Assembly: GCA_965178125.1 (NCBI GenBank)
Contig: OZ237745.1
Location: 1,178,001 to 1,242,000, forward strand
Origin: Bilabrum cf. latius
Lineage: Eukaryota
Direction of reading: 5' to 3'
Length of the DNA: 64,000 nt
The notes under the pieces are model-generated. The model saw only the letters and a list, made by a program, of their open reading frames with translations. It searched no databases and was not told where the DNA came from. Numbering within the stretch: the stretch's first letter is position 1; every line of letters starts with the position of its first letter. This document shows positions 1,864-55,518 of this stretch, piece by piece. Position numbers and translations under genes: made by a program.

Positions 1864-5424
<3,561 letters not shown>

Positions 5425-5721: not shown

Positions 5722-8566
5722 TCACAGATCCACGCCCCGCTTGGAGGCCGCCTCCTCGTCCAGCCTCCTAAACCTCCTCTCCACCTGCTTGAGGTCCTCG
5801 TACAGGCTCTTTATCTTCCTCTCCCGCTGCATCCTCGTTCTCTGCGAGGCGCTGCGGCAGGGATTCACCGTCCTCGTGTGGTTGTCTTTGTACACGCGCC
5901 CAACGTGCTCGAAAAACTCTCCAAAGGTCTTCCGGATGTCCTCGAATCCGCCGCTCGCGTACTGCGCCGCCTCGCTGCCGACCGCAGCCAGCGCCGCGTC
6001 CACGCCCCCTGCCCCATCCGAGCCGAACCCCTGCTCGGCGATCGTGTCAAGGAAACCCCTGCCGAAGCCAAGCAGCAGCTTGTGCTGGAAGCTGGCGCAT
6101 CCCTCGTTGTCCGCCGCTCGCACGTACCCGCACAGCTCGTCGATCTCATCCGGCGTGAAGGTGACCTCGTACAGCAGCCGCCCGTTGCCCGCAGTGGCCA
6201 GATAGAGCATCAGGTTGAAGTCCCTGCAGCGCTGCAGCATCGAGTCTCGCATCAGGCCCATGGCCCCGCCCTCCCCAGTCACGGCCGCCTCGTCTTCCAG
6301 CCCCGAGCTGCCCTGCCGTCGCATCCACAGCGTCTGCAGGTTGCCTGCCACCCGGTGGTTCCTGTCGTCGATGGGGAACACGCGCCTCCTGCACTGCTGG
6401 ATGGAGGGCACCGCCTCCACCCCGTCCTCGTCCCGCCTGCTCATCACGGGGAAGTAGGACCGCAGCATGCGCTCGTAGGGCATGAGCTCCTTGATGCCCA
6501 CGGGGGTCACCAGGTACGCGCAGTCGAACAGCTGCGTGGTCAGCACGCGGTTCGCAAGGTCACCAGGCTTGGTGGCCACCACGGGCTTCTCGGATCGGAT
6601 CATGAACGGGTTCCTCGACTCGGCGGTGGCTGTCTTGGGCAGGCCGAGGTGACCTGCCCTCTGCAGCTGCATGCCCTGGTCGGATATCTAAAAGGCTTGC
6701 GTGGATCGGTACGTCTTGGTCACCTCCCCGCTCGAGTTGCGCAGCGTCTCGACCATGAACACGAGCGTGGTGAAGAACGGCCTCTCCGCCTGCTGCCTGG
6801 CAGCGAAGCACACCTCCGAGGCCGTCAGTGGGCTGGTGCCCTCCTCCCTGTAGGGCGCTGACATGAGGCAGCCCACCAGCTCCAGGCCCAGGTTGCCCGC
6901 GATCCTGTCCGCCCACCGCTGCTGCTCCTTCGAGTCGTCGTCCTGGAGGAGCAGCAGCCGCTGCTCAAACCCGAGCTGCCTGGGCTCGTACACGACCTCC
7001 ACCTGCACCAGGTCAGGACGCTTGCGATCGCCCACCACCGTGCCGTACAGCCACGCAAACCTCCTCTTGTGCAGCGGCTGGTCCAGGAACGACTGCAGGC
7101 TCACCTTCACGACCCTGGTGTGCCCGATCCTCTGGAAGCCAAGCGCCACTTGGTGCTTCTGCATCCACTCGCGCAGCTCACCCATCGTGCGGATGCTGGG
7201 AGGGGGGCGGTCCGCATCCGGGAGGTCCAGCTGCGCGGGATCCACGGGTGCATCGTCGCTGGCCGTGCCGTCATCGACCATGCCCTCCCCGCCCGCACTG
7301 CCCCCGCCTGTACCACCCTCGTCCTCCTAACCACTACCACCGTCGCCGTCGTAAACTCCACCCTTGCCGCCCCCGGGAGGAGTAGAGGAAGGGCCAGACC
7401 CACGAGCGGCGCCCGCTGCACCGCCGCTGGTGCCGCTACTGGCAGCAGCGCCTAGCCCCACTCCTTTGCCACTATCTGCACCCCCACCCCAGCTCCCGCT
7501 CCCACCAGCGCCCGCCGAGTCCCCTGCCCTAGCCCTAGCCCCCCCCGCCGCTGCCCCGCCGGCCGCCGCCTCCGTCGATTGCGCCGCCCGGGGCGGCAGC
7601 ACCTCTACGTCCAGCTCTGTGTTGAGCCTGTTATTCTCCAGCTCAAGCTGCGGCCCTCCCAGGTCCCCAGTGAGGGGCCTCTCTGGGTGTCTCCACCGGT
7701 CCAGGTCTGCCCTCCCGATCCCCCTCGGAGTGAGCTCGATCTGTTCCCCGGTGGGCCGGTGGCTGGCCTTGAACATGCCCCGCCACTTGACCGCCACTCT
7801 CTCCTGGAGCTGACCCACCGTCTCCGTCTCTGGCACCTCGAAGCGGTAGTCCGATTTGGGCGGGTCGAGGGCCGCGCGGGGCGTGAGGCCTTTGGTCCCC
7901 ATCGGGGGCGGGTGCAGCACGAAGGACACGATGCCGCGCGCCTTGCAGTCGTCCAGCTGCTCTTGGATCGTTCTGCGATGCGAACGACTCGCAAGAGGAC
8001 TAGACCTAGTGTGGAGGGCGCCCTGGTGCAAGCGGCGAACCGTTTTGCGACCAGCAAGCAGCCGGCAAAATGGCTCGGCACAACGGCACCATGTCGATAA
8101 ACAGGTGTAATATTGACAACTCACTTTGGTCGCGAAGCACCAGTTGCGCTTGGGGCCGGTGCAGGGGCAGCGGCTGGTGCCGGCGCGTCTGCTCGACTGG
8201 TCACCTCCTGGGGATGGCATATGTACACAAACGCCCCTTTCTGCGAAATTCCAGAAGCAAACCTCGAAAAAGAATCTGGTCAAATTAAATGGAGGCAGTA
8301 CCCTTGCAGATCCAACATAAATGGCTCACGCGAGGCGAAAAAGTTGCGAGCGGTTGGTTCTCATCCTCGGGCAGATCCACCGCAGGATCGACGTCATCGA
8401 CGGATTTATTATGAAGATTGTCGTTTGATAACGATGCAAATACGCGAGTTGGTGGATACGGCAGCTCCAACAGACTTTTGGCAGTGTTAAGAGTGTCCTT
8501 CGCCAGGTCCACCTTGATGCGCTGGATTGAGCCGTTTGAGAGCTTGCATCGAAGCACGTGTGACAT
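5722..8566 (-). CDS. NPL4: Nuclear protein localization 4 homolog (Cdc48/p97 cofactor); 3 exons: 8566-8330, 8240-8125, 7972-5722
   Basis: N-terminal UBL-like segment (MSHVLRCKLSNGSIQRI). MPN-like core with RFAWLYG, VEVVYEPRQ, LGLELVG, LTASEVCFAARQQ and AF(TAG)ISDQGMQL. Two GT-AG introns restore the frame. In-frame TAGs at 7327 and 6688; ends at TGA 5722. Confidence 0.88.
7973..8124 (-). other. Spliceosomal intron 2 of NPL4 (152 nt, phase 2)
   Basis: GTGAGT donor and CATCGCAG acceptor; splicing gives ...RPK|TIQEQ in frame. Confidence 0.75.
8241..8329 (-). other. Spliceosomal intron 1 of NPL4 (89 nt, phase 0)
   Basis: GTGAGC donor and TTTCGCAG acceptor; removes the TAA at 8285 and joins LATFSPR|KGAFVYI. 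Confidence 0.75.
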
Positions 8567-13704: not shown

Positions 13705-16700
13705 TCACCTCCAGCCTCCGTCCGGACTGCGGGCCCCGGCCTCGCGATCGACAGGCTCGTCAGCCCATGCTACGGCCCCATCATCCACCCCTGCCTCTGC
13801 CACTCTCTCCCCCCAGTCGCCCCAGTCCCCACCCGACGCCACCGCCTCTCCTGCAGCTTCCTCCCATGAAGTGCCACCACTGGCACCGGCAGCTGCTGGA
13901 GCCTCTTCCTCCAAGTCCAGGCCCGTCCGCTCTCGCGTCAATCGAACGCGTGGGACGTAGATGCCCCCGCTGCTGCCACCTGCCGCCCCCGGCCCCGAGC
14001 CCCGCACTGATCCGATCCGGATCGCTCCACCCGGGCGCTCTGCAGCAGAGAACGCGCTCGCGCCCCCACTGGTCGCACGTCCTGGCCAACCACTGCCACT
14101 GCCGCTGCCACTGCCACTGCCACTGCCAGCCCCAGGTCCCGCAGCCCCCCCCGAGTGCCCTCCTCCCAAGAACGTGACCCCCCTGCTGGCCGACATGCGC
14201 GCGTTGGTCGTGTCATCCGCGTCGATGTCCACGCATTCTGCGATGGCGAACCTCAGCTTGTCAGCCAGCAGCTCCGTGGATGGGTAGTTGGGCAGGTCCA
14301 GGCGGTTGAAGCACGTGTAGGCCTTGGGCAGGGGGAAGCGCGTCTTGAGGTGCTGCTGTGCCTTGCGCCGCTTGGCCCCAGGGAGCGCCATCACCCTGTC
14401 CCATTCGCGCTTCAGGGCAGGCGGGATGGCAACGACGTTCACCGTGTGCAGCAGACCAGCGTACGCGCGCCGAGAACCCCCCGAGGAGGAGGAGGACCCG
14501 GCGGCGCCCGCAGCACCCCCAGCAGCGGACGCAGCGGCCCCCAGCAGAGGCCCGCCCCCGGCCCCGCCTCCCTCCTGGATCTCCCCGCCCGCCGTGCCAG
14601 CCGCCATGGAGGACTGAGGGGCCGCCAGCCGGGACCGGCCCCACACGAAGCGGAGGTATGCGCTCCTCTCCTTGGGCGAGAACTCCTGCAGCGCCTTCCA
14701 CAGCGCCAGCACGGCCTGCCTGCCCTCGCTCTCGGGCTTGCGGCTGCCACTGCCCGACCCCAAGCTGCCCTGGTTGCCCGCCAGCCCGCCGTACACGGTG
14801 CACCCCTGCAGCGCCTCGATGTCCACGTCTGCCTCGCCCGCCACGCCGTCCTCCAGCTCCTGCCGCCCGAACAGCCGCAGCAGAGGCAGCGGCACCTGGG
14901 ACCGCATCCCCCTCGCCATCGCGTGCACTGAGGCGTCCCAGCCGCCCAGCGCAACCGCCGCCGCGGCGGGCTGCAGCAGCCTCGCAGAGGTGGGGCCCAG
15001 GCACGCCGCCGGTCTCCGAAGGGCGCGCGGGGCGGCCGCCGCGCGCCGGCTGCCATCCAGCGCCGCCGCGAGACCCGCGGGCAGCGCCGGGGCAGCCGAG
15101 GCCAGCACGGCGGCGTGCGCCCTGGCGTCCACCGCCGCCAGCATGGAGAGGGCAGAGGCGGCCGCCAGCTCGCCGCCTTGAGGGCCCAGCCCCGAGGCGT
15201 GGGAGGCACCCGCCGCGGCGGCGCGCAGCACCAGCGTGCCGCCAGCGGAGGAGGACGCCAGGGCCGCGCCCGCCGATGCGATGGCCCAGGGCGCGGGGGC
15301 CCAGGGGCTCCGGTGCCCGTCCACGGCAAGCGTCAACGACCCGCCCGCGTCCGCCCCGGCGCACGCCCCCGCGAGCCTGGCCCAAAGCGCGGGCGCCAGC
15401 CTCAGCCCCAGGGGCGCCCCCGTCCGCAGCGCGATGCCGGCCATGATCCCAAGGAACTCGTAGCCCTGCTCGAGGGTGCGAGCCGCCGCGTCCAGGGGGG
15501 GCGCACCCGCCAAGGGCCAGGGTCTCCATGCCGCATCCACCAGCTCACCGCTGGCCTCCTCGTACGTGGTGGCGGCCCCGTCCTTGTGGACAGCCAAAGC
15601 TTCGAGGCACCTGTCGCTAAGCTCCGGGCCAACCGCGCCCGTCGACTGCTGCGGGAGCTGCCTGAAGTGCAGGAGAGCTCGGGCGGCCCCGCTGCCCCCG
15701 TGCCCCCACTGCAGAGCCAGAGGAGCCACGCCCTGGGAGCCCATGCTCACGGCCAGCAGGGCCACGGCGGCCTGCGTGTCCTGCGAGGGAACAAGGGAGC
15801 CGCGCATGCAGTCCCCATTCACGCTCAAGCCCTCCGTGATGGCGTCTCCAGTGGCCGACGTGACCACGCCGCCGAGGGCCCGTGCCCGCCCCTGCGCCGT
15901 CCTGCGCTGCGCCTCCCGCTGCAGCGCCTCCCGCCAGGAGCGCGCGGGCAGCGGCACGCAGGCGTCCATGGTGCCCAGTGCCTGCGCCTCCTCGGCGCCC
16001 GCCCCGGCGCCCGCGGCACCGCCTCCTGCCACCCCGGTCTGCGCGTTGGGGGTGGGTCGCAGGAGAGGCAGCACCGCACCCTCCGCGCCCGCGTCCTCCA
16101 GCCCGTGGGTGCCCATAGTGCTGGCCAGCGCAGACACGAGCGAGCCCGAAGCACCGCTGCCCACGGCCGCCTTGGCGCCCGCGCCGGTCACCGCGCCCGC
16201 CGTGCCCTCCTGCCCCTCCTCGGGCTGCACCTCCCCCTCGATCGCGGCCATGATCTCGCGATACGGACCCCCGTAGTCGTCCGCGTGTTCCCCGGACAGC
16301 TCCACGAAGAACGCCCGCTCGTCGTTCCTTAGCCTCCATGGACTGACCTTGCGCAGGGACTGGAACGCCTGCGCCGCCACGGAGCCCCGCCCCAGGCATG
16401 TCGCCAGCCGCCGCGCGTCGTCGAGCAGGTCTCTGGGCCTCTGCAGGAGCATCTGGAGGGCGGCCTGCTCCGAGCCGTGGGTGCACGCCGAGGGACGCTG
16501 CACGCTCGAGCCCCCTGGGACGAGCACTGGCCATAGGCCGCTGGGCGGCTGCGACAGCTCTCGCCAGCCCCCCGCCCTCCTCGCCGCCGCGAGCCCCGCC
16601 TCCCTCGCCGCCTTGCCACCGCTGAGCAGCCCCTCGTGCCAGCGGTCTGGGCCCATCGTGCGCGCGCGCCGCTCCTGCACTTTCAGAAGCATGTCCTTGG

Positions 16701-19700
16701 CAAGCTGCAGCGCGCTCTTGCTGTTGTCCTCGGTCAGCCGGGCCAGCCGACGGTCCACCTACAGCTTGGGGTCCTACTTGCCGTTCTGCCAGCGGGCCCC
16801 GCAGGAGACGGCGGAGCCGGCCTCCCTCGCTCGGGCGGTCAGGGCCAGCGCCTCTGCCCACAGGAAGGCGCGGACGGGGGGCGGCAGCATGGCCCGAGCA
16901 TCGCGCGAGGAGAGATCGGCCATGGCGCGCGAGACGTCGCTCCCGGCCGACAGGTCCAGCAGAGGGGCAGAGCCGCCCACCGCGGTGGCCCAGGACCGGA
17001 TCAGGAGCCAGCGGGCCTGGGCCCGCAGCAGCCGCGCGTGTGTGGCCGCGCCCTTGGCCATGGCGTGCAGCTCCAGGGCCCGACCCTCTCTGTTCTTGCC
17101 GCGCGCGTGCGCTGCCGTGGCCAGCGCCTCGCTCTCGGCGGCCGATTGCGCCGCCCTGTCGAGGCCGAGCTCTCCCGCGAGCGGGTCCTTCTCCATGCAG
17201 ACTGCCTGCCTGGCCATGGGCCCGCCCCGCTGGTGAGAGACCGAGTAGCCCCGGAAGTAGCTCTCTCCCGACGACGCGTCGCCCGAGGGACGCACCACCC
17301 CCGGGGTCAGCTGCAGCGCGGCGGCCGCCACCACAGCCGCTGAAGTCGTCTGCGCCGAGGGCACGGGGGGCGCGGGCAGCACGGCCAGCGTGGCCCGCTT
17401 GAGCTGGGGGCCCACGGACCTCCCCTGCAGCACGTCGGCGCCCAGCGCGGCCCCTCGCTTGCGGGCCGCCTCCGAGGCACCGCACTCGTCACAGCTCCGG
17501 TGCGCCATCTCGGCCACGGCCCGCGTGGTGGGGCCTCCCCACGGAAGCCCTGCCAGCTTGCGAGCCTCCGCCGCGGCCTGCCTGCCCCCGCCAACAGCGG
17601 CCGCGCCCGCTCCAGAGACGGGAGTCGCACCGGTGAGGGCCCCGGTCGCCGCAGTTGCCGCTGCCGCCGCCTTGCGCGCCGTCGTTTCCACCGCCGCCGC
17701 AGCGGGGGCAGTTCCGTCTACCGTTCGCAGGGCCCCCGCGGCGGCACCAAGCGCCAGGGCTCCCAGACGCAGCGCCGCGCCCCGCAGGCGGCTCGCCCTC
17801 CAGGGCTCCAGCATGGACCGCTGCAGCTCAGATTCGGAATCAAAAGTGGCCCCGTCGCCCAGCACCCCCGCCAGGTCCGTCTGGTTCTGCAGCCACCGCA
17901 GCACGGCCTGCCTGCCTCTGCTGGTCAGGTGGTCCGTGGCGTCCGCCGACAGCACTCGCATCTCGCCCGACGCGCCGGCCCCTTTGGCCGCGTCCCCCCC
18001 CCGCACGTAGGCCAGCCACCAGCCCCGGGGCCCCTTCTGCGCAAGGACGTCCCGCATCCCTCGCTTGCCCTTGGCTGCCTCTGCCGCCGCCTCTTCCACC
18101 TCCCTCACCGCCGGGACGGCCCCGAGAGCCGAGGCCGCCGAGGTGCCCGCGCCGGAGCCACCCCCTGCGAGTTGTTCCCTGGCCTCCTTGTCCCCCGCCG
18201 CGCCGCTGGCCACCAGGGACTGCAGGGCATCGAAGTGCCCCCTGGAGGACTCGCGGCAGTCCACGGCCGCCACGTCAAACCAGCGAGAGTCCAGCTGCAT
18301 CCGAGTCGCGTCGCCCTCTACCGCCTTGCGCCGCCGCCGCTCCTGATCCCTGGCCGCGAGCGTGTCCGCGTTCTGCAGCAGCCACTCCACGGCCAGCTCG
18401 CTCTGGTCCCCCGTGTGCAGCAGGGCATCCACGCACCACCGCAGGGAGAAGCCCATGCCCTGCATGTTCTCAGCGGCGCGGCGGCGGCCCGCGGGCACCC
18501 TCGACGGGTCGAAGTCGTCGTCCGGCGATGTACCGGCCTGCAGGAGACCGGCGGCAGTCTGCTCCCCCTGGAGAGCGACCTAGCGTCCTTTCGCCTGTGC
18601 GCGCAGCGAGGCGTTGAAGGCCAGCCGGGCGGCGTCCTCCTCCGACACGTCCTCCAGGCCCGAGTCCTCTGCAGCACCCACCGCGGTGGACCGCGCGGCA
18701 GCTCCCCGACCGCTGTATAGGGCCCCAGAGGGGGCCAGGGCACCTGGTGCCACGCCCACGCCGCACTCCAGCGCAGCCGCCTGTGCCGCCTCCGTGGGCG
18801 GCGCTTCGTAGTCCATCCACATCTGCACCGCGTCCCCGGGGTCGTACATGGAGAGCGCGGGGGCCAGCTCCAGACCGTGCGGGATGGCGCACTGTGGGAG
18901 GTGCTGCCTCAGGCCGAACCCGCACACCGTGGAGCCCTCCCTGCCCGCCACGCCGAGCCGTGCCTGCTCCTCCTCCTGAAGCCCGAACCGCTCACATGCG
19001 CCCAGGTCCGAGACCCACAGGCCCCTCCTTTCCCTGGGCTTGGGGTGCTGCAGGATGCACAGCTGCCCAGAGGCCACGTCCAGGTAAAGCGTCAGCAGGT
19101 CGCCCGTCTGCGCCCTCCGCCCGGCAGACTTCTGCTTCTTGTTGTTCGTCCAGAGAGCCCCGTTGAGGATGAAGCCCCACCCAAAGCTGTCCGAGCCGAT
19201 GAACTTGGCCCCGGAGGCCTCCCTGGACTGCACCCCCACGAAAACGTTGGAGCGCTTCACAAACTTCTCGATGTAGACGTGCCACTTGAGCACGTGCCGC
19301 CCGCGCGAGCGCTCCAGATTCGCCAGCCGCGCGGCGAAATCCGGCCCCGACTGGGTCGAAGCGCCCGCCCACTTGCTGCCAGCGTCCTCTGGGGGGGTGC
19401 CGGTGGGTGGCGCCACGGTGGGCGGGAGCGGCGTGCCGACCACCACGGAGGGGCGGGAGCACCTCGAGGAGGCCCACTACTTCTTGCCCACCATCTCCAC
19501 GCGGCAGGCCGGCGCGCCGAGAGCGACGGGCGTCCCATCCGCCGTGGTGGCTAGGATACCCGTGTCGACGCTGGCGGGGGGCGCGCCCGATCCCGAACCC
19601 CCCGACCGGAGGGCAGCCGTCACGCCCCGGGTGCTCTATAGGCCAAGGGCCTCCCCGGGGTGGCGCACTGGCCATGCGAGCACGAGTCTGCTGCCCTGCA

Positions 19701-22700
19701 CCTTGCACCGCATGCCGCCCACGGACCCGGACAGCAGGTACTCGATCCGCGATGGCTTTCGCAGCCTCCCACCAGCAGCGGCGGCGGTTCTGCCCCTCGC
19801 CAGCGCGGCCTCGGCGTCCTCCATTGACTTGAACACGCCGATGGGCTGGTGTGCGGGGACGTGGGACCCCGCTGCCAGCTCCACCGACACGGAAGATGCC
19901 CCGGGCACCTCCACCAGCCGCACGGTCCGCTGTAGCTTTGGCGCTTCCTCCGAGCCGGGAGCCGCGCCGGGGGCCTCCGCGGGCTGCGGGGTGTACTCGC
20001 ACCGCACAGCCTGCTCGGAGGCGCGCAGGGCGAGGGGTCCCAGCGAGGCCGTGCCCAGCACCAGAGCAGCGGGGAGGGCCGCGGGAGGCAGGGCGCCCAG
20101 GAGCGCCCGGCTGCCCTGCACCGCTGCGGCCAGCCGCACCAGCCACGGCGCGATGGAGCCAAGCCGACCCAGCAGCCGCGCGGCCGCGTCCCTCCTGCGG
20201 AACCTCGCGGCCAGCGCCGTGCATGCCACTGAGACGAATGCGCCCTCGCACGCGGCACGGGAAGCCTCAGGCGCGCCCATGGCGGCGTGGGCCGCTGCCG
20301 TCAGCGCCAGCTCGTCGCTGTCCAGCGGAGCGGCAGCCTCCCGGCCCGTGCCGGACACGCGATCCAGCAGAGCGGCGGCTTCCTGTTCCTCGGCTGCTCC
20401 TGCGGCCGAAGTAGGCTCTGCCGCGCCAGCACCCGACGCGGCCGCGCCGCCGCCGCGTGACGTACCCGCCGCGGCACCCTCCGCCGCGGCCAGGGCCTCG
20501 CTGGCAGCGTAGTCCGCCAGCGCGCCTGCCGGGTCCCGGGCCGCCTCGGAGGCCTGCCCCAGCGGCCGCCCGGTGGCCGATGCCACCACGGCCCAGGCTG
20601 CCATCGCCTCCGCTCCTGCCTCGCAGAGGGCCTGCACCAGCGGAGACAAGGCCCCGGGGGGGGGCCTCCAGCGGGAGTCGATCACCTGCCCGGAGCCCTG
20701 CGCGCTCTCCTGCGCGGCCACCCTGTCCCGGCGGTACCGAAGCTCGGCCCCGCGGAGAACCACTGCCAGCAGACGAGCCGCGTCCATGGACCGCGCCCGG
20801 CCCCGGAGGGAGGTCGCGCGCCACTGGGCGCGGACTGCCGCGGCGCTGCCGTCGGTCGGCTGGGCGGCCATGGCGGCGGCCCTCCCTTGTTCCTTGGACT
20901 CCACCACCGCGGATGGATCCACGCTCCGGACGTGAAGCCCGCCCACGCCCCGCACACCCGAGCTGCCGAAGCGGCAGTCAGGGTCCAGCACCAGCGCCTG
21001 TGCTGCCCCTGCCAGGGTGGGAGGACCCTGAGCGTCCAGGTCACCTGAGTGACCGTCCGATGCACCTGCCCCGGACATGGCCGCGCTGGCAGCGGAGGCA
21101 GGCGCGGCGGGCGACTCGTCTGCACCCACGTCGCATGCCACCTCTGGGCTCAGCCGCAGCAGAGCCGCGATCAAGCGAAGAGCGAGTCCAGGCCAGCCAG
21201 CCCACCCCGGCGCCCGCGCGGACGATTGCGTTAGCACGTCTGCGGAACAGGCGCCGCGCCCCAGGATCCGCAGCGCGTGCGGCACCTTTGGCTGGGAAGC
21301 GGGCTGGGCCGCGTACAGCTCCAGCGGGTCCTGTGCCCAGCCGTCCGGCGACTCCACCAGCGCGATGCGTGCGGGCCACGCGGCCGAGGCGGTAGCAGCA
21401 GCTGTGCCTCTCGGGTCGAAGTGGCCCCCGTCGTCCAGCAGGGATTGCGTGGGCTGGTCTGTGCTAAGCAGCGGGGCGCTTCCGTGCTGCCTGCAGTCCT
21501 CCGGCCACTTGGCCACGTCTCTCACGGCCAGCTGCACCAGGGCCGGCACCAGGGCACGCGGCATGCGAGGAGCCGCAGGCAGCGGCCCGGCGGTGCTAGG
21601 GCTCGGGTTGCTAGCCGCCGCCGCGATGAGGATCGCGCGGGAGGCTCTGGATGCCTGCGCCGCGGCCTCCATGCAGTCGATGGCGAAGCGCAGCACAGCC
21701 CTGGATGGGGGAGAGCACAGCCACAGGGAACAACGGCGAGACAGTGTGGCGGCGAGGACGGGGTGGACAGGGGCGCGCCCGCCCGCGGATGCAGCGCCAC
21801 CGGCCCCGCTGGATGCACCGCCCTGCACGGCGGCATCTCGCTGCGCATCAAAGGCGGGTCCAGCCGCGCACCCCCCGATCGACAGGGACACCAAGCAGCC
21901 CGATGGGGTGTCGTCGCTGGTGCAAGAGGACGCAGCGACTTCGGTTGCGATGCCTGGCAGAGTCGCCGCGTGCAGCTGCAATGGCGCTGCGGACAAGGCG
22001 GCGGCATCCTCCGCACCTGTACCAGCGGATGGCGTTGCCACTGAACCGGTGGCCGCCAGCTGCAGGCAGTTCGGGCGACTCCCGATGCCCCCGGGCCTGG
22101 CCACGACCACTGCCAACGCAGCGGATCCCTCGGGCGCCGAGGGGCGCAGGTCGCTGGCAGTGGACGCGCCACGCAGGGAGCTGCCCTCGCCCATGGGGCC
22201 AGAGCCACCGGCCGTTGGCAGCTGCGCGAACTGCGGAACCGCGATGCGCGGCGCCACCGCATCGGGCGAGTCGACGGGCGGGGTCTAAGTGGCAAGCATC
22301 GCCGCGGAATGGTGCGGGCCCGCCCTCCACTGGCCCTCCTGCCGCGCCTCCCTTGTGAGAGGCGTGCCCGCCGCGCCTGCCGCGTCAGGCAGCACGGCGT
22401 CGTGGGCGGGGCACCAGGCGGCTGCAGGCGGGGCCTCTCCTCCGCTCGTGGCTGCCGCTGCGGCCAGCAGGGCAAGCGTCCCCGCCGGAGCTCGCTCCGC
22501 CCGCCAGGCCAACGCACCGCGCGAAACCATCCGAAACCCGGCCCCCGCCACACCCGCGGCGTCGGCCGGGTGCAGCGTGGCCAGCACCTGCGTTCCCACG
22601 GAGCAGTCTGTCAGCCCGGCGTGGCTCCAAGTGGAGCCCCATAGGGTCTGTCCCGCCGTGTGGCGGCCTCCCTGCAGCCAGTCGCCGCTGGAGCGCCCGT

Positions 22701-25700
22701 GTTCTGCACCACCCGCCCCTTCCGCCCCTGCCCCATCGCTGGTCTTGCCCTTGGCCTTGGCCTTGCCGGCCTTCTTGGCCTGGGCAACGCGAGCATCCAC
22801 CCACGACTTGGCCTCTTCCTCCATCGCCTTGCGGGGAGCCGCGCAGCCCACGTGTCGCTGGCGCGCCGCGGTGGCGTGCTGCACGCTGGCCTCGCCCTCG
22901 GTGGCAGAGGCGAGAACCACTGGCGCCCGACGGCACACGGCCACCACGCCAAGGGAACTCGACGGGCCAGAGAGAGAGGTGGCGACGGCCGTGTCGGCCA
23001 CCGCCCCCGCTGCCAGCTCGCAGGCCTGCTAGCTCGCGATCGCCGCCAGGCGCTCCCACGCTGCACCGCCCGCTGCCGCCTCCGCCGACAGCCGAGCCTG
23101 CAGGCCTGCGAGCCTCATCTGCGCAGCCGTGGCCTCCAGACGCCCGGCCCCAGCGGCGGGCACGCCCTCCCCGCCGCTCAGTGCGAGAAGCGCAGCGGCA
23201 GCAGTGCGGTCCCACAGCCCACGCGCCGCGTCATCGATGGGACCCACGGGTGAAGGAGAGCTCTCCGTGGTGCTCTTCGTTTCGCCGCGAGGTCGAAGCA
23301 GGCAGGCCCATAGGTCGGCGCCCTCCGTCGCCGCCGCGTTCTCCGCGTCGCCTATTCGGAGGGCAGCCTCGGCCCCGGCTGCTCGCAGCAGGGCGCGGGC
23401 GCAGGCAGCGGCCGCGGCCGCGTTTGCGTCGCACGCTGTGGCAGCGTCCAGGGCCGCCCGCGCCGCCTGTGCGCCAGCGGACATGGCCGCGGCGCGCTGC
23501 TTTGCCTCAGCGTAGGACATGCGAGCGCCGGCGCCCGCGCTGGATGCCGCTGTTGTTCCCTGGGTGCCGGAGGCGCCTCTGGCCGCGGTGGATGCCGCGC
23601 CACGGAGAAACGCGCGACCAGCCGGCTGCAGTGCGACATCTTGGCGCTGCTACTCTGCTGGTTTGGGCTGGATCTCAACGAAGCGCCTGTTCCTGTCGCC
23701 AACCGCCTGGGACGTGCGGGCAGCGGGAGACATGTGGGCGCCAGAGGCCGTCCCCCCGCTGCCACTCGCAGCAGCCCCCGTCCCCGCCACTGCAGCCTGC
23801 TCGTCGGACGGCAGGGAGCTCTGCCGCTGGAGCTGGGCGATGTCGCCGGGGGCATCGGGGGAGGCCAGCATGAGCGCCCTCCCGTCGTCGTCGCAGCGGA
23901 AGGAAGGGTGCGGGGCCGTCCACACCGTGCTAGCACCAGTGACGCTCTCGGCCCCCTTGGTCGCCGAGCACTGGCCGCCCGTGCCAGCGGCGCTCGCGCC
24001 AGACGCAAGCATTGCAGCGGCGGCGCCGCTGCCGCTCGCCGGGCCCAGAGATACCGCCAGCACTGGGTCGGACAGCGCCTCCTCGGACTGTTCCCCGGTG
24101 GCCAGCACGACCGCGGCGCACCCGTCCGAGTGGTCGAGCGCCGGCGACCACTTGTGCCCGAGCGCAGCATACCTGGACCTGCCATCGGAGCCGGCTGCCG
24201 ACCTCCGCATACCCGGCAGGATCTCGAGATCGTAGGCGCCTTCGAAGCCCCAGCGGTGCACCTCGATGTTCCCTGTGCGTCTCCACCGGACCTTGATGCC
24301 CGCACCCGCAGCCGCGTGCCAGTCCGTCACGTCGGTCACGTCCCCCAGCCCGCCCTCACCGCCGTCTGCCGAGCCCCACTGCCACGAGGGCCCGCGCCGC
24401 ACCACGTCCCCCCTCTGGATCTCCACGCCCGGCCCCGTGCGAGCCCCCACGCCGCTGAAGTCCCCGCCCTCCGCCTCCCCAGGCCACTCCTCCTGCGTGG
24501 CAGAGAGCCTGCCCAGCCAGTCCGCCGACTCGCTCCAGTCTCCCTCGGAGGACCCTGGGGGTGGAGGTCCGCTCAAGGCTGATTGCGTCTCATCCGCAAG
24601 CACCTGGCGCGTGAGGGCAGCCCTCCTGGCCAGGGGGTCCATCTGGAGCCAGCCAGCTCCAGAGGCACCAGACTTGGATACGATCGACTACAGGCGAGCG
24701 AATGCAGCCGCGCGACGAGCAGAGAGCTCCTTGTCCACTGCGTTACCCGTGCCGAACGCAGAGGTGGGCAGCCCCGCCCTCGTCTGCATCTGCTGCCACG
24801 CCTCCATCGCACTGGGCGAGGCTTCATCGGGCGAGAAGAGCGGGGCGAGCGCGAGTGCATCGCCTGCCACGGCCGCCAGCAGCGCCCCCTCTTCCACCGC
24901 AGCACCCACTAGGCCGTGGCGAGCCCGTCGCTCGCCGGCTGCCGGCGCATCGCGACCAGCGGCAGCCGTCGAGGGTGCCCAGACGGGCACCGAGGCGGCC
25001 TCCTTGGCGAACTGGTCGGCGAGCACAGAGCTGCTAGCCGCTGCTTCGAGCAAGGCCACCCTGCCCGCAGCGCACGTCTTCTTGGCGGCATCGTCGGTCT
25101 TGGTCCAGGCCTTGCCTGGGACCGGACCCTCGATCTGCTCCATGCTCTCCAGCCCGTCCGAGCCGCCGACTACCCCTGCACACGCGACGAGAGCCCCGGC
25201 CAGCGCTGACTACAGCACCGTGGGATGCACCTGGCTGGTCGACAGCGAGGTCGCCTCCGCTCGACGGATCGCCCTCGATTTGGCGCTCTGGAAGTCGCCA
25301 GCCAGCGCCGAGTCGGCGTAGTCCTGACCGGACCGAGAGCACTGCGCCACCGCTTGACGAAGGGCACAAGCCTGCGCGGCCCACGCTCCAGCGGCAGCGG
25401 CCCACCACCTGCGCGCCGCCCGCAGCGCGGCGATCCGCGAGGAGGTGCACGGCACAGAAGCGAGGTCACTAGCCTGCTCCGCGCCCCCGGCTGCGTCCCT
25501 GGCACCGGGCCACGCGGAGGGCGCGGCCTGCAGACAGGCAGCCAGCCGAGCGTCTGAGGGGTATGCGCCGGCCAACAGACCCCCGAAGTCGCCTGTGTGC
25601 GCGTGCGGGGACGCCGCACCCAACGTCGATACCGGTGAGAACGAGGTCGAGGTCGAGGGGATGGGGGAGCTGCCTGATGGCGGCGTGCTCCCATCCTGTG

Positions 25701-28700
25701 ACCCCTCCGCGGCCACCGCTCCGAAGCAGCTGGCCGCCGCCTGCATCTCGAGGGCCTCGTCCGAGAGAGAGGCTCCCACGCTGGCAGCCCCCTCCTCGCC
25801 CTCCCCCACGCTCGGCGGCATGGGCAGGAAGCCGGGGTGCTTGTCGCTCCACGCAGCCTCCATCAGCTTGCCCTCGAGTGCCGCGGCCCGCATCTCAGTT
25901 AGCCTCGGCTCAAGCCGTCGCATCTCCACCAACGCCCGCTCCGCGATGGCAGACGCACTGCCGGCAGCACCCGGGCCGCCGTCCACCGCCTGCACCGTCA
26001 GCGCGAACCTGCATCCCACCACCAGCTCGGGGGACAGGAGCAGAGGGCGGTCGGAGCTCGCCGCCACACCCTCTCGCAGGGCTGCCCGCCCCCACACCTG
26101 AAGACCACCCGAGGCAGCGCGCACCAGGGTCTCCATCGGAACCAGTGCGGCCGGCCAGCAGGGCTCCGGCACAGCTGCAGACAGAGCCTCGGTGCCTTCT
26201 TGGTCCGCGGGCAGCAGGCCGGCCTGCAGAGCCTCCGAGACGCCGCGCTGGCCCATGAGAGCCAGCACCGAGTCGAGACAGTCCAGTGCACACGAGTCGT
26301 CCGGAGCTACCGTCCAGAAGTCGGGAGAGGAAAGGAGCGCCAAGGCGCCGGCACCTGCGTCGAAAACAGCCCCGCCTTTCGTTTCCTTCTCTTTCTCCTC
26401 ATCGGCAGCAAGGGAATGCTCCGCGAGGGATCGCACAGCCTCCGACACGGCCGCCCAAATGGCAGCGCGCCAGGCAGGGGCGTGTCCCCGGAGCACTGCC
26501 ATGCCCGGCTCCTCCCCCTCATCCATGAGCTCGTCATCGTCGGGCGCCTGGCCGTCAGGCAGCGACCCGTCCAGGGACGTGATCGGCGCCTCGGCCACAG
26601 ACCCGGCCATCGCGCGCACCGCGGCCAGCCTCGGCTCCAGCTGGGCCGAGGACCACCCGTCCGCGGTGCCGACAGCCAGCCCCAGCATCAGCGAGGCGGC
26701 CTGCCGGGAGGGCGACTCATCGGCACGATCGTCGCCTAGCGCCGGGTGTGCAACCACACCGCCGGGCGCAGCCGAGGGGTCGCTTGCAGCAGCCGCAGCA
26801 CGCAGGAGCGTCCTACCACCTGCCGCTAGGAGGCGATCCACGCTCTCGCCCCCTTCGGTCCGCGCGGCGCCTGAGCCCGGTGCCACCTGCCAGGCAGCGC
26901 CTTTCTCTGCAGACGAGAGGCTGGCCACGGCTCGCAACCCTGCGGCAGGCACGGCTAACAGCGTGCGGGCCGCAGACCCGCTCGCGTGACGCAGGAGACG
27001 GAGTCCAACCTTCCCGCTGGTGTCGCATGCAATCCCAAGCAGCACGTCAGAGGCACTGGATCCTACAGCCGCGGACGAGGCTCCACCAGCTGCGTCCTCG
27101 CCCTCGCCGCTCTTGGATTCCTCGTGCCCGCCGCCATCCTCGGAGTCAGAGCCGGCATCCATGTCAAGCTCGAGCTCTGTCCCGCCCCACTGCCCTCGGT
27201 CTTCGTCCTCTTCCTTGCTTTCCCTCCCTTCCTGTCGGGCTTCCATCAGCTCGTATGTGAGGGCGCTGCCCAGCACAGAGACAGAGGGATCGCCAGCCAC
27301 CACCCGGTCCAGCGCCAGGTCATCTAGGGCGGGCACCACGGCCAGCGCGTGGCACAAGCTCGCTTCTGCACGCGCAACAAATCCCTGGCTGTCCGGAGCA
27401 GGGCCAATTCCAGGCGTGCTGCCGCTGTTCGGAGCCCTCCGGACGTAAGCCAAGCAGTCGGCCACAAAGCTCACCACCGCCACCACGGCATGCGCGGCTT
27501 GCTCCGCTGACAGGGCAGGTGCCCGGGAGCCGAGTGCTCGGACGGACTCGAGCGTCCCGTTGCCATCTCTGCCGCTGGCCTCGGCGCGGATCGAGCGGAA
27601 GCACTGCATTGCAGCGCCCGCGCACGTCATGACCGCGGTCAGGGCACGACGCCCCTAAGTCGCATCCCCGGTTCCCCGCGCCAGCACACGTGACGCCGCC
27701 CTGCACATGGAGCGGAGGGAGCCCCGGCCACGAGCCCGCACCAGAGGGCCCAAGTGATCCCATCGGATCGATGGCGCGCGGGACGAGAGCGGGCACACCA
27801 GGCCAGAGATCTTCGGCACGACTGCGCTTCTCAGCACCACGCCCTCTACTGACGCGAGGGCCCGCACGATGCGGCCCATGCTGGCAGACAGGGCGGGGGG
27901 AAGCACACCCGCGCCGATGGAGGCGTCGGTGCTGTTCCGCAGCAGCCGGCCAGGGCGCACCTCGGTTGCGGCATGCAGCGGCGCAAGGCTTGACTGCCAC
28001 ACGGCCTGAGCCCCGGGCAGCTGCTCGCCCGCCTTCGCGTCCTCCTCTGCTGCGCGACCGACCGTGTCGGCAAGGTCTGCCAACAGACCCGACAGAATGG
28101 CCGCCTGCGCCGCAGATGCCGTCCGTGCCAGCGTGACGGCGTGTGAGAGCACCACCAGCAGAGAGGCAAGGGTGCTCTGGGAGCCAGCCAGACGACACAG
28201 CCGCATCAGCAGCCGGGTAACTACGGGCCCGAACGCAGACAGGGTCGTGCCGAGTGCCTTTGCGCCCCCGGCGGCAGCGGCGCCAGCTACCGTCGAGGCA
28301 GACTCATCGAGCACCGGCACCGGCACAGTTGATGATACAACCACCACAGCCTCCGCAGAGGCGGCTACGCACTTGGCCAGCTCGCCCAGAGACGGAGCCC
28401 CGCCGGGCTGCTTGCTCTCACTGAGCTGGGCAAGGGTGGTGACCACCGAGGGAACAGCGAGCACCACGCCCTCGGCGACGAGTTCCCTGGCCGCCTTTCC
28501 GTACTTGCCGTCGGGACGGGGCTCTACGCCCTCCGCAGCACCCGTGGCGTGCAGTACCGCAGCCACGGCGCAACGCGCCGCCAGACGCACCCACATCTTG
28601 GCTGAGGCCTTCTGCTTCCCCTTGGGCTTGCCGCTGCTGCTGCGGCCCCCGGAAGACTTGCTGCCCTCTGTCACGGGCGCCACTCGGCGAGCCGTGCGAG

Positions 28701-31700
28701 AGTCCAGCGACTGCAGGCCCTTGCTGAACGCCGCCAGCGCGCCGGCCTCACCCGACAGCAGGCCACGCACGAGGGGCGACATGGGGCGCCACGTGGCCCT
28801 CGGCACCAACCGGGGCCCGCTCGCACTCGCGCGCGCCCCAAATCCAACCAGGCTCGCCAGCCGGGCCACAGCGGGCAGCGGCTGCATCTCCATGGGAGGC
28901 GAGGGCACCGCCTCGGTTGTGGTCATGTCCTTCTGCCACTCGCCCAGCCCGTCGCGCTCGCCCACCTGCACCGTGCGCAAGGCGCCCTCCGCAACCCCCC
29001 TCGGTCCCTTGGGGAACAATCGCCCGCCGAGGTACCGACACACCGCGCCTCGCGAGGCCGCCGACAGCAGCTCAGCGCTGCCCTGCACGATCTCCCCGAG
29101 AAGGGAGGCCTGGCCCCCGTCAGCAATCACGCCAGCGGGCTTGGAGGAGGCCGCCCAGCCGGCCCCGCTGCGCCGGAGTCCGACCGCCAGGCGAGCAATT
29201 TCGAGCACGCGAGGCAGCAGAGGACGGAAGGCCGGGCGCGTCGCACCGACCCCGGCCCAGCGCACAGTCTGCCTGCCCAGCTCCACGCGGCATGCCCCGC
29301 TGTGCACACACGACAGGGTTGCAAGAGACATGGCGTAACCGCCCGCAGACTGTGCCAGGCGCACTGCTGCCACGCTGGCGCCGTCAGCGGGCTCACCGGT
29401 GCCGCCCGCCCGCCGCAGGGCGTCGGCCAAGGCCTCCAGGCACGTCCCCGCCACCAGCTCCACGCTCGCGTTGGCTGCCATCGCGGCCCCAAATTCTTTC
29501 GAGGAGCGGACGCCCCTCCAGACCACCTCGGCCTCGTACCACCGCAGCAGCGCCACCACATCGTCACCCGTGATCTCGTCCCCGTGCCCGCGCACTGCCT
29601 GCATGAGAGCACCGGTGCCTACCTGGCAGCTCGTTCGGGCGGAGCGGATGAGGCTCTTCGGCCCCCTGGGTGTGAGGTCCATGCCGTCAGCGGCATCTGC
29701 AGTGACCTTGGACTTGCGCGTCTGCAGCCAGCGGGCGCGCATGGGCAGGCTGTCCGCCTCTGATGCAGGAGCGGCTGACTGTGCGGTAGCAGCGGCGGCG
29801 GCGGCCGCACGAGCGGCTGCCCCACCAGTCTCAGCTTCTGCCACGGCGGGCAGCGACTCGGCAACGGGGGCGGTCCCGGCGCGAATCTCGAGTCCCTCCT
29901 TGCCAGGCGTGAGGAGGGACCCGTGCAGCCGGCACGACGCCGCCACGGCACCGGAAAGAGCTGCCCGAAGAGATGTCGCGGCCAGCGAGGCCGGGGACGA
30001 GCCTGTCGACCCGCGCTATTTCTCGCCAGCCGCAGTCTTGCTCGCTGCGGGCGTCTCAGGCACGTCCGCGTCTGTCGCCGCGCCTACCGCGGCAGCTAGG
30101 CTCTTGACGATGGTTGCCACTTCCGTGCACGGCAACTTGGTTCTGCAGGCTGCGAGCGCCTGGTCTCCGTCGGCGGGTGTTTCGATGGTCTCCTATCCAG
30201 CAGCCCCATCTGCCGCGCTCGCGCTGTCCTCTGCTGACTGCGCGATGGCAGCCGCCCACCACTCTGGGCTGGCAATCGTGGACTGCACCGAAGGCCGCAC
30301 CACCAGCTCCCAGGTGGTTGACGAGGAGGAGGAAGAGGCGGCCGAGTGCCCAGGTGCCGCCTCGCTGCCTGCGCCTGACCCATCACGGGCGGCGCACGAC
30401 CGCAGCTTGTCGGCCAGGACCCTTGCCCTGCTCAGGGGAGAAGGATACACCATGGATCCGAGGCTGGCCAAACAATCGGCCGCCGATCGACCGGCGTCGG
30501 AGCGCGGCCCCTGCGCCTGGTCGTCGCCTGTTCCCTGGGCCGAGGACCCCGCCGCCACGATGGACTCGAGCGATTCCAGAGTGGACGCAAGTACAGCCTC
30601 GCCGCCCACATCTGCACCTCCGCTACCTGCACCCCCTGCCGGGGCCTCCCCAGCTCGGCTGAGGCTCACAAGCAGCTGTGCCCTGGCCTGTTCAAGCCCC
30701 TCGGCCAGCGGTGGCACGATGGCCGTGGGGCCACCGTCCTCCACGGCGTCCTCTCCGCTCGACTCGGAGCCGACGCGGGCCGCAGTCGCTAGCCCCTCCA
30801 CGCACTGCATGGCCTCTTTCGCCAGAACCCACTGGTACCCATCGGCATCGGCACCGGCACCGCTGCCGCCGCTTGCAAGCGACAGGCCGCTCACGATTCG
30901 CCGCAGCAGCATGATGGACCTGGCCAGCGCCTCGAAGACAGAGTAACCACCCCCAGCGGCGCTGGCTTGCTGCCCTGATGGAAGAGCATTGGACCGCGGC
31001 CAACTCTTGCTGCTCGCCGCACTCGTGGACCGCGATTGCGCGGGAGGGCCACCAAAGCCCCCGCCGCCGTCCTCGTCCTCGTCGTCAAACGCAGCCGCCG
31101 CATCTGCGCTGGCACTCTCCCGCGCAGAAAGGGACGACAGAACCGCGCCTGCCGCAAGTCCAGACACACCACCTGCAGCACCATCGCCGTTGTCACCGCC
31201 TGCCGCAGCCCTAACGCCGCCTGCAGTAGCACCCCCCGACCGCCGTGCGGCCTGCTCCTGCATCAGCCCTGCCAGCGCCCGGGCGCCTCTCCCCGCCACT
31301 GCCAGCGCAACCCTCACAGCTGCGAGTGAACTCGGCATCTCGGCAGCCTGCAGCGCATGCGCAGCCTCCCCACCCAGCCCCCGCTCCGCTGCCCCGTGCA
31401 GCGCAGGATGGAGCTGACTACTGCCTGCGGTGGCCGCCTGGCCGTCTGCCGCTCCTCCTCTTGCTGCTTTAACCAGCGCCGCGGCTAGCTCCACCACTGC
31501 CAGCAAGTCCCCCGAGGCCCGGGCCGCGTCTAGGGCCACGGACGCGCAGCACGCGACGGCCTCCGAGGAGGCCCCTGCTCCTGCTCCTGCTCCATCAGCG
31601 GCCTCCCGGATGGCATCCACGGCCCCTCGGCACAGCACCCTCGCGCCCACCCGAGCAGCTGCGCCCGAGAGCAAAATCGCGTCTGCGTCGTGCGCAGATG

Positions 31701-31995
31701 CAGCGGCGGTGCCCCAACCTGCCGCGTCTGCGTCGCTGGAGCGCGAGGCCTCGTTGATCTCCTCGGCTGCCCCCCTCGCCAGGCGGCTCGCGAGAGCTGC
31801 GGGGGCCTCCCCCTTCCTCTTGCTGAGGTCTACGAATGCGTCTGGGAGTCCAGCAGCGTGGCGAGCTGCTTGCTACCCCAGTTCAATGGACTTCTCGCCC
31901 GACTAGACGGCCGCTCTAACTGCTGATGCCGCAATGTGAGCAAGAGATACCGCCGAATCAACACTCGTGCCTGATACGCCCGGGGAGTGCTTCAT
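13705..31995 (-). CDS. Giant HECT E3 ubiquitin ligase (~6100 aa) with MIB/HERC2, SPRY and UBA domains
   Basis: About 12 listed ORFs in one frame separated only by at least 14 TAGs; ends at TGA 13705. HECT motifs FFVELSGEHADDYGGPYRE, YLRFVWGRSRL and LPKAYTCFNRLDLPNY (Cys codon 14311-14313). MIB/HERC2 VRRGPSWQWGSADGG..KVRW (~24230-24420), SPRY (~19080-19300), UBA MGFSLRWCVDAL..AVEWLL (~18370-18470). The start codon is uncertain. Confidence 0.85.
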
Positions 31996-32920
31996 GGGGC
32001 TCAGCTGCCCCCCCAAGTACTTGCCTGATCTAGACGTTGGGGTGGCTTCGCTGACGGTTGTACTGCCGAACAAATTTACGGACAATGCCTGCGATGCATG
32101 CGATGGCTTGGTTGGTGGCGTGGGTGGAATCGAAATGCACTGGAACACGACCGCGCTACCATAGGTAGATGGCCAGAAAATTGGAGATATTGTGGGACGT
32201 AGCGGTGCAAAGCGCTTGTATGGGTTCGGTACGACCAGCGACGTGTTGGGATCCTCGCAGCAACCATGAGCACAGTGTGATGCAATACTGCTTGATCAGG
32301 CACAGGCACAAGTCGGACCTCACCTTTTTGATGACATTTCGTATATCATGAATGGATATGCCGGGTGTCACACCAGACATTGCAACTCAAGGTCGAATTC
32401 AAGGTTGCCAAGAACAATGATCGGTGTCGCGATCGATCCCTGGCGCAGCAATCAGGATGTACTGCTTCTGGATCAGTAAGGAAGACTAACAAGAATATGC
32501 TAGTCTTACACGCTGGTGCTACGAGACGCGACAAGCCGAGTGCTACGACGCGAGAACGTCAGCTTCGAAAACTGGATTTGATTTTCCGGTATGAGCACGG
32601 TACAAACAGATGACGCCAACTTGCTGAACTGCATTTTTAAGCCCCACCTGGAATCACACGACAAAAACAGCTTGCTAGCTGGATTCTAGGTATTCCTATG
32701 GCATTGTGACCTCTCTGGTGAAGCGCAAGCTGCCATACCACGCCTCTACGAGGCCTCCAGCGAGACGCCGGTAGCCTGGCCTCTGTGCTCAGCTTTTCGA
32801 TGAAAAAGCAGAGAGGAGGTGCGATGCGGCCGCCATTGCCTTGGGGTTGCCAAGTGACTTACATTTGCCTTGCAGCATCCAGCTGCTGCCACTGGACCGG
32901 GCACTCTGTGAGGCATGCGC

Positions 32921-51918: not shown

Positions 51919-53289
51919 TTAGTGCGCCGCGGACTCCACCACCGGCAGGGGCGGCAGCTCCACCGCCGCGTCCCCCAAGGAGGGGAGGATGTTCCTGCCG
52001 AGTGCGCTGCCCACCAGTTCCACCGCCGCATCAGCTGTCCTGTCACCGTCCTCCTCCGAGTCTGCAAGCTGCGGGTTCACCTCAACCATGTCCATGGAGC
52101 CCAGCAGGCCCGTCTCGAACAGCGACTCGCACACGTAGTGCGCCTCGCGGTAGCTCAGGCCCCCGGGGACCCTCGTCCCCGTGCTGGGGGCAACCGAGGG
52201 GTCGCACGCGTCGATGTCGAAGCTGAGGTGCAGCGGGCGAGGAGAGCTGCCCCCCGGCCCCGTCAGGTGCTCCACCGCCCTCCTCATCACCTCCCCGATG
52301 CCCAGCCTGTCCACGTCCGTCATAGTGTAGGCCCGGATGCCCAGCTGCGGGATCACCTTGCGCTCGTGGTCGTCTACGTCGTTGAGCCCGATGTACACGA
52401 TGCGGCTGGGGTGCAGCGCGGGCCACGCCCCGAGCTTGCTGATGCGGGGCAGCAGCGGGGCGGGCACGTGGCCCGACTGCAGCACCTGCCTGGCCACCTG
52501 CGCTGCCTTGCTGTTGCCTGCCTTGTCGGCCTTGTCCGCTGCCCTCTGGGCCTGCTCCAAGACGAACTTCTTCCACTCCGCCTCGTCCCACGGGGCGCTC
52601 TCTTCCCCCTCGCACATCCACTCGAGCCCGGGCATGGCCCTGGGGTCCGCCAGCCTCGAGGCGAAGGCAACCGGCATGCCGTGCATGTTGCCGCTGGGGC
52701 TCGCGCTCGGCGTGTTGATGTCCGCATGGGCGTCCACCCAGATGACGCCGGCGTCGGGGCGCGCGGCAAGGATGCCTGCCAAGGTGCCCATCCCGATGCT
52801 GTGGTCCCCTCCGAGCGTCAGCACGAAGTTGCCGTCCTCGGCGGATTCCTTGACTGCGTGAGCAATCCGTTCGCTTGTCTTTCCGACCGCCACAGAGTTG
52901 CGGCCACCCTCGGCGCTTGCGTCACCACGTCCCGGACGAACCGGATCAACGTCTCCCTAGTCAACGAGACGCCAGCCAAGACTTGTCACTGCGTTCCGCA
53001 GCCCACGTTGGCGTATCAGCTTCGGCCCTCGGTCCACTCCGTCTAGTGGCTAACCGAAGCTGAAAGGAGCCCCAACGACATGCACTGTCGAAGGTGCTTT
53101 CACACCGCTTTCGTCTTTGACCTACTCAGAGGGGACAAACGGCGCATCGCTGAAACTTCGGGATTGGCCGCCGCAGTTGCACATAGGAGTGTTCCGAAAC
53201 ACAGAATCTTTGCCTCTGGGCAACGTATGTGCGGACACTCTTCTGCTAAGACCTCGTACAGACCTGTACGATACTAGTCTAGAAAACAT
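51919..53289 (-). CDS. Arginase with probable mitochondrial presequence
   Basis: VVGAPFSFG(TAG)PLDGVDRGP, LGGDHSIG, WVDAHADINTP, SGNMHGMP, HLSFDIDACDP, TGTRVPGGLSYRE and DMVEVNP. Arg/Ser-rich N-terminus MFSRLVSYRSVRGLSRR. TAGs at 53122, 53050 and 52957; ends at TAA 51919. Confidence 0.95.

Positions 53290-55468: not shown

Positions 55469-55518
<50 letters not shown>

Follow-up and report, generated by a model that had tools for sequence, protein, structure and literature searches.

The present analysis concerns a TAG triplet that lies in frame within a gene for an NPL4-like protein, on the minus strand of a 64,000-nucleotide stretch of DNA (GenBank assembly GCA_965178125.1, Bilabrum cf. latius, contig OZ237745.1, positions 1,178,001 to 1,242,000), which is called the window below and is numbered from its first letter. 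A second TAG lies further upstream in the same frame.

The NPL4-like gene and its two in-frame TAG codons

The features of the gene are the following:

8330..8566, minus strand: coding part of exon 1, with ATG at 8566-8564, 79 codons
8241..8329, minus strand: intron A, 89 nt, GTGAGC...CAG, skipped in the contigs of runs X5 and X6
8125..8240, minus strand: exon 2, 116 nt
7973..8124, minus strand: intron B, 152 nt, GTGAGT...CAG, skipped in the contigs of runs X5 and X6
5722..7972, minus strand: exon 3, the last one, 2.25 kb, including the TGA stop at 5722-5724
7327..7329, minus strand: second in-frame TAG, codon 333, in a Gly/Ala/Ser-rich linker
6469..7071, minus strand: NPL4-type MPN core, about residues 419-619, the confidently modelled part, which holds the TAG at codon 546
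6688..6690, minus strand: in-frame TAG, codon 546 of the coding sequence, in the place of the Gln that the family keeps invariant in the motif A(F/W)Q(x)S(D/E)Q

Positions 6705..6660 of the minus strand read T Q A F TAG I S D Q G M Q L, in which 6690..6688 is the TAG. Between 8325 and the TGA at 5724..5722 the frame is open, its sole interruptions being this triplet and the TAG at 7329..7327, and it contains neither TGA nor TAA. The other two frames of the same stretch and strand carry 15 and 9 TGA, so that the high content of guanine and cytosine (GC), which amounts to 54-75% per 2 kb of the window, does not explain the open frame. Splicing joins the upstream exons in frame with the long exon, giving a whole coding sequence of 867 codons, and the ends of both introns, which appear as CT..AC on the plus strand, are GT..AG on the strand of the gene. 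The ATG at 8566-8564 is the probable start, being the first one past the in-frame stop of the spliced frame, a TGA located 9 codons upstream.

Contigs of four public runs (X1, X5, X6 and X7) were aligned to positions 5600-8400. Run X1, from which the assembly was probably made, covers this stretch unspliced and in one piece. Runs X5 and X6, which come from two studies other than that of X1, are not on record as RNA, and expression was deduced from their spliced contigs only: both skip the two GT..AG introns, and these contigs therefore derive from spliced RNA. Record 2 of X5 spans positions 5600-7470 and record 6 of X6 spans positions 6290-7275, in each case with no differing letter, indel or joint; the uncovered positions (7471-7553 in X5 and 7276-7584 in X6) fall within the low-complexity linker. 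Codon 546 is identical, with no other letter, in the contigs of X1, X5 and X6, that is, in three studies, which excludes a read or assembly error. The TAG at codon 333 is covered without differences by record 2 of X5 and record 10 of X7. The TAG at 6688-6690 is exonic, is present in RNA-derived contigs of two studies, and is not visibly edited. An intron at the TAG was rejected, as there is no joint at the site in the spliced contigs, and RNA editing was rejected as well, as no letter is changed there in the X5 and X6 contigs. A sequence-only reading of this DNA had seen no splice signals around the triplet, and the spliced contigs do run straight through it; the possibility that the gene is silent, which the same reading had raised, is answered by the spliced contigs of two studies.

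Taken alone, the protein matches the Pfam family PF05021 (NPL4) with an E-value of 6e-4 and 19.7 bits, under the cut-off of 24 bits, and the PDB chain 9m3z_G (Arabidopsis NPL4-like protein 2) with an E-value of 3e-7; in the latter alignment, the TAG stands opposite the Q of AFQMSD. An exhaustive HMMER search returned 55 relatives; a word-based search for homologues, with the 498 C-terminal residues as the query, gave no match. The nearest full-length relatives (P0003-P0006 and P0009, with 28-40% identity) pass PF05021 at 31.9-72 bits, are without UN_NPL4 and zf-NPL4, and have a C-terminal extension in common with the window protein. This extension is common only to the protein's own subfamily, and the protein also contains a long low-complexity linker. 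Pfam detected neither UN_NPL4 nor zf-NPL4, whether the query was the full open reading frame (ORF), exon 1 or the N-terminal portion of exon 3. The canonical homologues are more distant; UN_NPL4 is found in P0012, P0014, P0017 and P0019, and a weak zf-NPL4 in P0019.

A profile made from the window protein and five orthologues matches 11 PDB sequences of NPL4 with E-values from 7e-30 to 6e-8, the individual values being 7e-30 for 9m3z_G, about 1e-25 for human NPL4, 6e-12 for Chaetomium and 4e-8 for yeast. The AlphaFold model has a mean pLDDT (predicted local distance difference test score) of 57.9, with the MPN core mostly at 70-88 except for a loop at residues 82-94 of the modelled piece. Codon 546 lies in a strand of this core, in blocks with pLDDT of about 82-87. 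When the model was used as a Foldseek query, the first 15 rows were all NPL4 chains (E-values from 3e-16 to 3e-12), followed by other MPN proteins. The encoded MPN protein belongs to a divergent subfamily within the NPL4 family, and the gene is probably an NPL4-like paralogue. With NPL4, the cofactor of Cdc48/p97, and with the plant NPL4-like proteins the protein shares the fold of the MPN and C-terminal domains and the motif A(F/W)Q.S(D/E)Q, whereas it differs from canonical NPL4 in having no detected zf-NPL4 or UN_NPL4 and in staying below the Pfam cut-off when taken alone. The earlier label "essential gene NPL4" is therefore too specific, given the 19.7 bits, the undetected domains and the divergent subfamily to which the nearest relatives belong. 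The accompanying statement, that a true stop at this point would cut the MPN domain, agrees with the location of the codon within both the modelled core and the stretch aligned to 9m3z_G.

The gene forms a head-to-head pair with a CWF19L1-like gene on the plus strand, whose candidate ATGs lie near 8692 and 8779. The two starts are about 130-210 bp apart (window positions 8330-8800), and the RNA contig of the NPL4-like gene appears to extend to about 8639. This arrangement suggests that the two genes share a bidirectional promoter or overlap at their 5' ends.

In-frame and off-frame triplets across the window

For an analysis of the whole window, only TAA and TGA were taken as the limits of ORFs, which gave 13 long ORFs with 17,115 codons. 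In frame, these ORFs contain 93 TAG, no TAA and no TGA, and no frameshift was found in them; their two off-frames together contain 183 TAG, 56 TAA and 417 TGA. TAG is as frequent in frame as off frame, and TGA and TAA are excluded in frame. What had been presented as an oddity of one gene is thus general: every long gene of the window uses TAG as a sense codon. The ORFs include frames of 6,196, 1,770, 1,483, 1,285 and 1,162 codons. Pfam support at or above the curated cut-off was obtained for 7 of the 13 ORFs, and the following products were assigned:

13705..32295, minus strand: giant HECT ubiquitin-ligase ORF, 6,196 codons, 15 TAG, no TAA or TGA in frame, ends with TGA; Pfam HECT, 1e-23
51919..53292, minus strand: arginase, 3 in-frame TAGs, ends with TAA; PF00491, E-value 1.5e-68
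CWF19L1-like protein: Pfam CwfJ_C_1, 6e-24
EDR2_C protein: Pfam, 3e-45
M23 peptidase: Pfam, 1e-12
PQ-loop protein: Pfam, 2e-13
PA-domain protein: Pfam, 5e-11

The HECT ORF is the strongest internal evidence for TAG as a sense codon. Each of its off-frames contains 52 TGA, and at that rate the chance of finding none in frame is e^-52, about 3e-23. It extends over 18.6 kb with no introns; the Pfam matches to MIB_HERC2 and HECT are above the cut-off and those to SPRY and UBA_7 below it, and about 175 Ala/Gly/Ser-rich residues follow beyond the end of the HECT match. The arginase, whose best PDB match is human ARG2 (E-value 7e-76), is of the animal, fungal and bacterial type and carries an insertion of about 55 residues between its two conserved halves. 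The base that follows TAG is A in.23, C in.25, G in.35 and T in.17 of the cases, which does not represent a read-through context.

The ORFs end at TGA in 10 of 13 cases and at TAA in the other three. Given the CAA:CAG ratio, about 17 TAA should occur in frame if this triplet also encoded Gln, and none was found. The TAA of the arginase ORF falls 24 residues past the end of the PDB alignment, and the GC contents of the first, second and third codon positions (GC1, GC2 and GC3) are 0.67, 0.50 and 0.79 inside the ORF and 0.47, 0.58 and 0.63 beyond the TAA. A drop of GC3 to about 0.5 was also observed beyond the TAA that bounds ORF 53665-55842 on its 3' side and beyond the one that bounds ORF 33019-34839 on its 5' side; the TAA-bounded end 1864-1866 is ambiguous. 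Since the ORFs were delimited by TAA and TGA, the argument on TAA rests on the loss of the coding signal past these few TAA-bounded ends. With the caveats of this delimitation and of the small number of genes, UAA behaves as a stop and not as a sense codon.

Residues at TAG positions and alternative explanations

The identity of the encoded residue was deduced from the residues aligned with TAG. Codon 546 of the NPL4-like gene corresponds to Gln in all 13 other sequences of a 14-sequence NPL4-family alignment, so the conserved Gln recognized at this position by the sequence-only reading stands. The fragment P0002, which is 98% identical to the NPL4-like protein of the window, reads AFQVSDQGMQL and thus has Q at the very position of codon 546. 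Human ARG2 and 5ynl, the two distinct PDB arginases displayed, both have the Q of GAPFSxGQ opposite TAG codon 81 of the arginase gene. In the HECT ORF, P0060 (95% identity) has Q, K, Q and S at TAG codons 4273, 4572, 5174 and 5179, respectively, and P0061 (92% identity) has Q at TAG codon 2536. Codon 333 of the NPL4-like gene is Val in the relative P0018, within a stretch that is of low complexity and poorly conserved. Altogether, close relatives (92-98% identity) have Q at 4 of 7 TAG sites of the window and V, K and S at the others (binomial P of 8e-5, with a background Q frequency of 4%).

Public protein collections hold relatives only as truncated ORF fragments (P0002, P0007, P0018, P0048, P0060 and P0061), and several of them end exactly at a Q of the window protein: P0018 and P0048 at ...ALGF|Q, P0007 at ...ATKQ|Q and P0060 at ...AAQAF|Q. 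The aligned part of P0061 stops three residues before TAG codon 2882, with two unaligned residues left, and this fragment probably ends at or one codon before that codon. The fragments are evidently ORFs called with the standard code, and their terminating codon would be TAG. An interchange of TAG and CAG among relatives would produce such a pattern, and the ends at Gln and TAG positions indicate that standard-code calling fragments the genes of this clade.

A more distant relative was found in a metagenome, with 62-63% identity. Of the window TAGs in its aligned span, 2 of 6 are opposite Q (the others opposite R, E, K and A), and its own aligned TAGs are opposite a window Q in 4 of 11 cases (the others opposite E, E, P, A, L, Y and R). 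For a pooled count, one residue was taken per site and lineage, the lineages being the close relatives, the metagenome relative with 62% identity and the outgroup families. Among the 30 pooled residues, Q occurs 13 times, K and E 3 times each, V, R and A twice each, and S, P, L, Y and F once each. The BLOSUM62 sums at TAG positions are 63 for Q, 29 for E, 21 for K and -7 for S. Moreover, TAGs are present inside poly-Q runs, as in LYqqQQQQL and WQQQqQQQL. If TAG encodes Gln, the Gln codons of the 13 ORFs are CAG (570), CAA (103) and TAG (93), the share of TAG being 12%.

It was also observed that G is the base before 62% of CAG but only 31% of TAG, and that C precedes 40% of TAG (P of about 2e-7). 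This bias may reflect the context of CAG repeats or a context-dependent C-to-T mutation bias.

Taken together, these results make it very probable that the window belongs to the nuclear genome of a GC-rich, intron-poor microbial eukaryote in which UAG is translated as Gln, with UGA (mainly) and UAA as stops, a code of the type of NCBI table 15. With the same high degree of confidence, we regard the TAG at 6688-6690 as an ordinary Gln codon in the expressed and spliced mRNA of a divergent NPL4-family MPN protein. The decoding would involve a dedicated tRNA-Gln with the anticodon CUA, which by the base-pairing rules would not read UAA, and an eRF1 that has lost the recognition of UAG, as in other lineages with this code; this route is proposed by analogy with those lineages, as they are described in the relevant parts of two papers (PMC2984419 and PMC11687900).

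Several observations speak against Gln as the meaning of TAG, or against parts of the argument. At TAG sites, V is found in all three EDR2_C homologues, K and M in CWF19L1, F at codon 112 of the arginase, and, as given above, K, S and V in the close relatives and R, E, K and A in the metagenome relative; at the M23 site, one PDB chain has Q and another has S. The columns of the EDR2_C, CWF19L1, arginase and M23 sites are variable; the TAG sites without Gln are variable positions, which give no support. The argument on TAA is partly circular, TAA and TGA having themselves set the limits of the ORFs, and relies on few genes. Run X5 is flagged as "RNA? (probably DNA)", and its RNA origin was deduced from the spliced contigs. 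A scan of the 64-kb window for tRNA genes found none, and Rfam at the gathering threshold gave no match in the window. Finally, in ORF 37798-43107 one TAG lies four codons ahead of the terminal TGA. From the TAG density, the chance of at least one TAG that close to an end among 13 genes was estimated at about 0.3, and this case is compatible with chance.

The last observation would also fit an ambiguous, context-dependent code, in which UAG is Gln inside genes and stops translation close to certain 3' ends, as in Condylostoma, karyorelictids and Blastocrithidia, or else near-cognate read-through with no dedicated tRNA; moreover, as the ORF ends were set by TAA and TGA, termination at TAG would go unseen in the window. 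We nevertheless consider such a code unlikely. All 13 ORFs end at TGA or TAA, the in-frame density of TAG (93 in 17,115 codons) equals the off-frame density, so that TAG is not avoided in the coding sequence, no special 3' context follows it, and the single TAG within five codons of an end has the chance of about 0.3 just mentioned. It is very unlikely that UAG is a sense codon for another amino acid, namely Glu, Lys or Ser. A precedent for Ser exists in one green alga, Scotinosphaera (in the part of Li et al. 2021, PMC8271138, that deals with it), and E, K and S do occur among the 30 aligned residues (3, 3 and 1, respectively), but Q is the commonest residue and has by far the highest BLOSUM62 sum, the two family-invariant columns have Q in 13 of 13 (NPL4) and 2 of 2 sequences (the GQ of arginase), and TAGs occur within poly-Q runs. 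Ser in particular was rejected on its negative sum and its single occurrence.

A local defect, that is, a nonsense mutation, a pseudogene, a sequencing error, an unrecognized intron or RNA editing, is the commonest cause of a single in-frame stop in one gene, and it can hardly be credited here. The codon is identical in the contigs of three studies and is kept in the spliced, RNA-derived ones, with no joint or change of letter at the site; in addition, 93 in-frame TAG accompany the absence of TGA, TAA and frameshifts in 17,115 codons, and the relatives share the pattern, on which grounds a pseudogene was rejected too. Insertion of the selenocysteine or pyrrolysine type at TAG was likewise rejected.

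Recoded lineages, relatives and repeats

The reassignment of UAG alone to Gln is described, in the relevant parts of PMC11687900 and PMC5304391, for the fornicate Iotanema spirale and for the ciliates Protocruzia tuzeti, Hartmannula sinica and Trochilia petrani. The window resembles these table 15-type lineages in that TAG is a sense codon that aligns with Gln, TAA is absent as a sense codon and ends at least one conserved gene, and UGA is a stop. It differs from the metamonad and the ciliates in its GC content of 54-75%, in its use of TGA at the ends of 10 of 13 ORFs, whereas UAA is the main stop in the ciliates with UAG only (as covered in PMC11687900), and in its genes, which are long, Ala/Gly/Ser-rich and intron-poor.

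The reassignment of both UAA and UAG (UAR) to Gln is described, in the sections on these codes in PMC2984419, PMC11687900 and PMC5304391, for ulvophyceans (Dasycladales, Cladophorales, Trentepohliales and Blastophysa), diplomonads, oxymonads, many ciliates and the aphelid Amoeboaphelidium. This code, of the type of table 6, is similar to that of the window in having TAG as Gln, the order of usage CAG > CAA > TAG and TGA as the main stop (PMC2984419). There, however, TAA is also Gln and TGA is the sole stop, whereas the window has no in-frame TAA. A UAR code does not fit the arginase ORF, which is closed by TAA, and the window is unlike the described ulvophyte code because TAA is not sense. Amoeboaphelidium was excluded on account of its genomes with about 40% GC (PMC10608142, Table 1). 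Scotinosphaera is similar to the window in that UAG alone is reassigned and TAA is kept as a stop (PMC8271138, in the part on this alga), and different in that UAG is Ser there and Gln in the window.

In the literature covered, from which subscription journals were mostly absent, no description of UAG as Gln in a GC-rich alga or protist was found. The code itself is of a known kind, and the lineage is probably a new user of it.

Two metagenome loci with about 62% identity and a GC content of 65-67%, L001 and L002, carry the same giant HECT gene. L001 has 8 in-frame TAG over 1,391 codons and L002 has 4 over 1,338, both with no TAA and no TGA in frame, and their off-frames contain 12-22 TGA. This signature places the recoded clade in at least one environmental metagenome. 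In the ESM Atlas, two TAG-free pieces read with the standard code gave no useful lead to a taxon or family. The window contains no marker gene, and its arginase type, GT..AG introns and microsatellites do not point to one lineage.

We propose tentatively that a GC-rich (about 65%), intron-poor clade outside every reported lineage has independently moved UAG alone to Gln, keeping UAA and UGA as stops. Such a clade might comprise the organism of the window, its relatives with 78-98% protein identity and the metagenome relative with about 62% identity, an assignment that we put forward with equal reserve. Changes of the nuclear code are rare, and those of UAG without UAA are rarer still; the part of a survey dealing with UAG as Gln names one fornicate and a few ciliates (PMC11687900). 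If the proposal is true, the code with UAG alone as Gln would exist outside ciliates and metamonads, and it would have arisen in a genome whose GC bias should favor TAG over TAA, the opposite of what "codon capture" under AT pressure predicts. A GC-rich lineage with this code would be an independent case for the origin of tRNA-Gln(CUA), the change in eRF1 and the role of base composition in the capture of stop codons. On the practical side, annotation with the standard code breaks the genes of this clade at every TAG, and its gene models, orthology tables and pseudogene calls would need to be redone with table 15.

Several repeats were noticed in the window. A tandem repeat of 27 bp, with 11 copies and 93% identity, occupies positions 50093-50389. 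It sits between two ORF pieces on the plus strand, 48585-49973 and 49977-51668, which look like parts of one gene for a secreted protein resembling carbohydrate-active enzymes and have no Pfam match; the repeat may be intronic, or it may encode the 9-residue repeat VTITHLVRP. Perfect or nearly perfect hexamer and trinucleotide microsatellites lie in or beside coding frames at 2485-2588, 32920-33002, 55470-55519 and 58702-58768, examples being (TGTGCC)17, which corresponds to a (Gly-Thr)n run in ORF 1864-5721, and (GCA)17, which corresponds to poly-Gln. Microsatellites of the (GT)n type are also present in the window.

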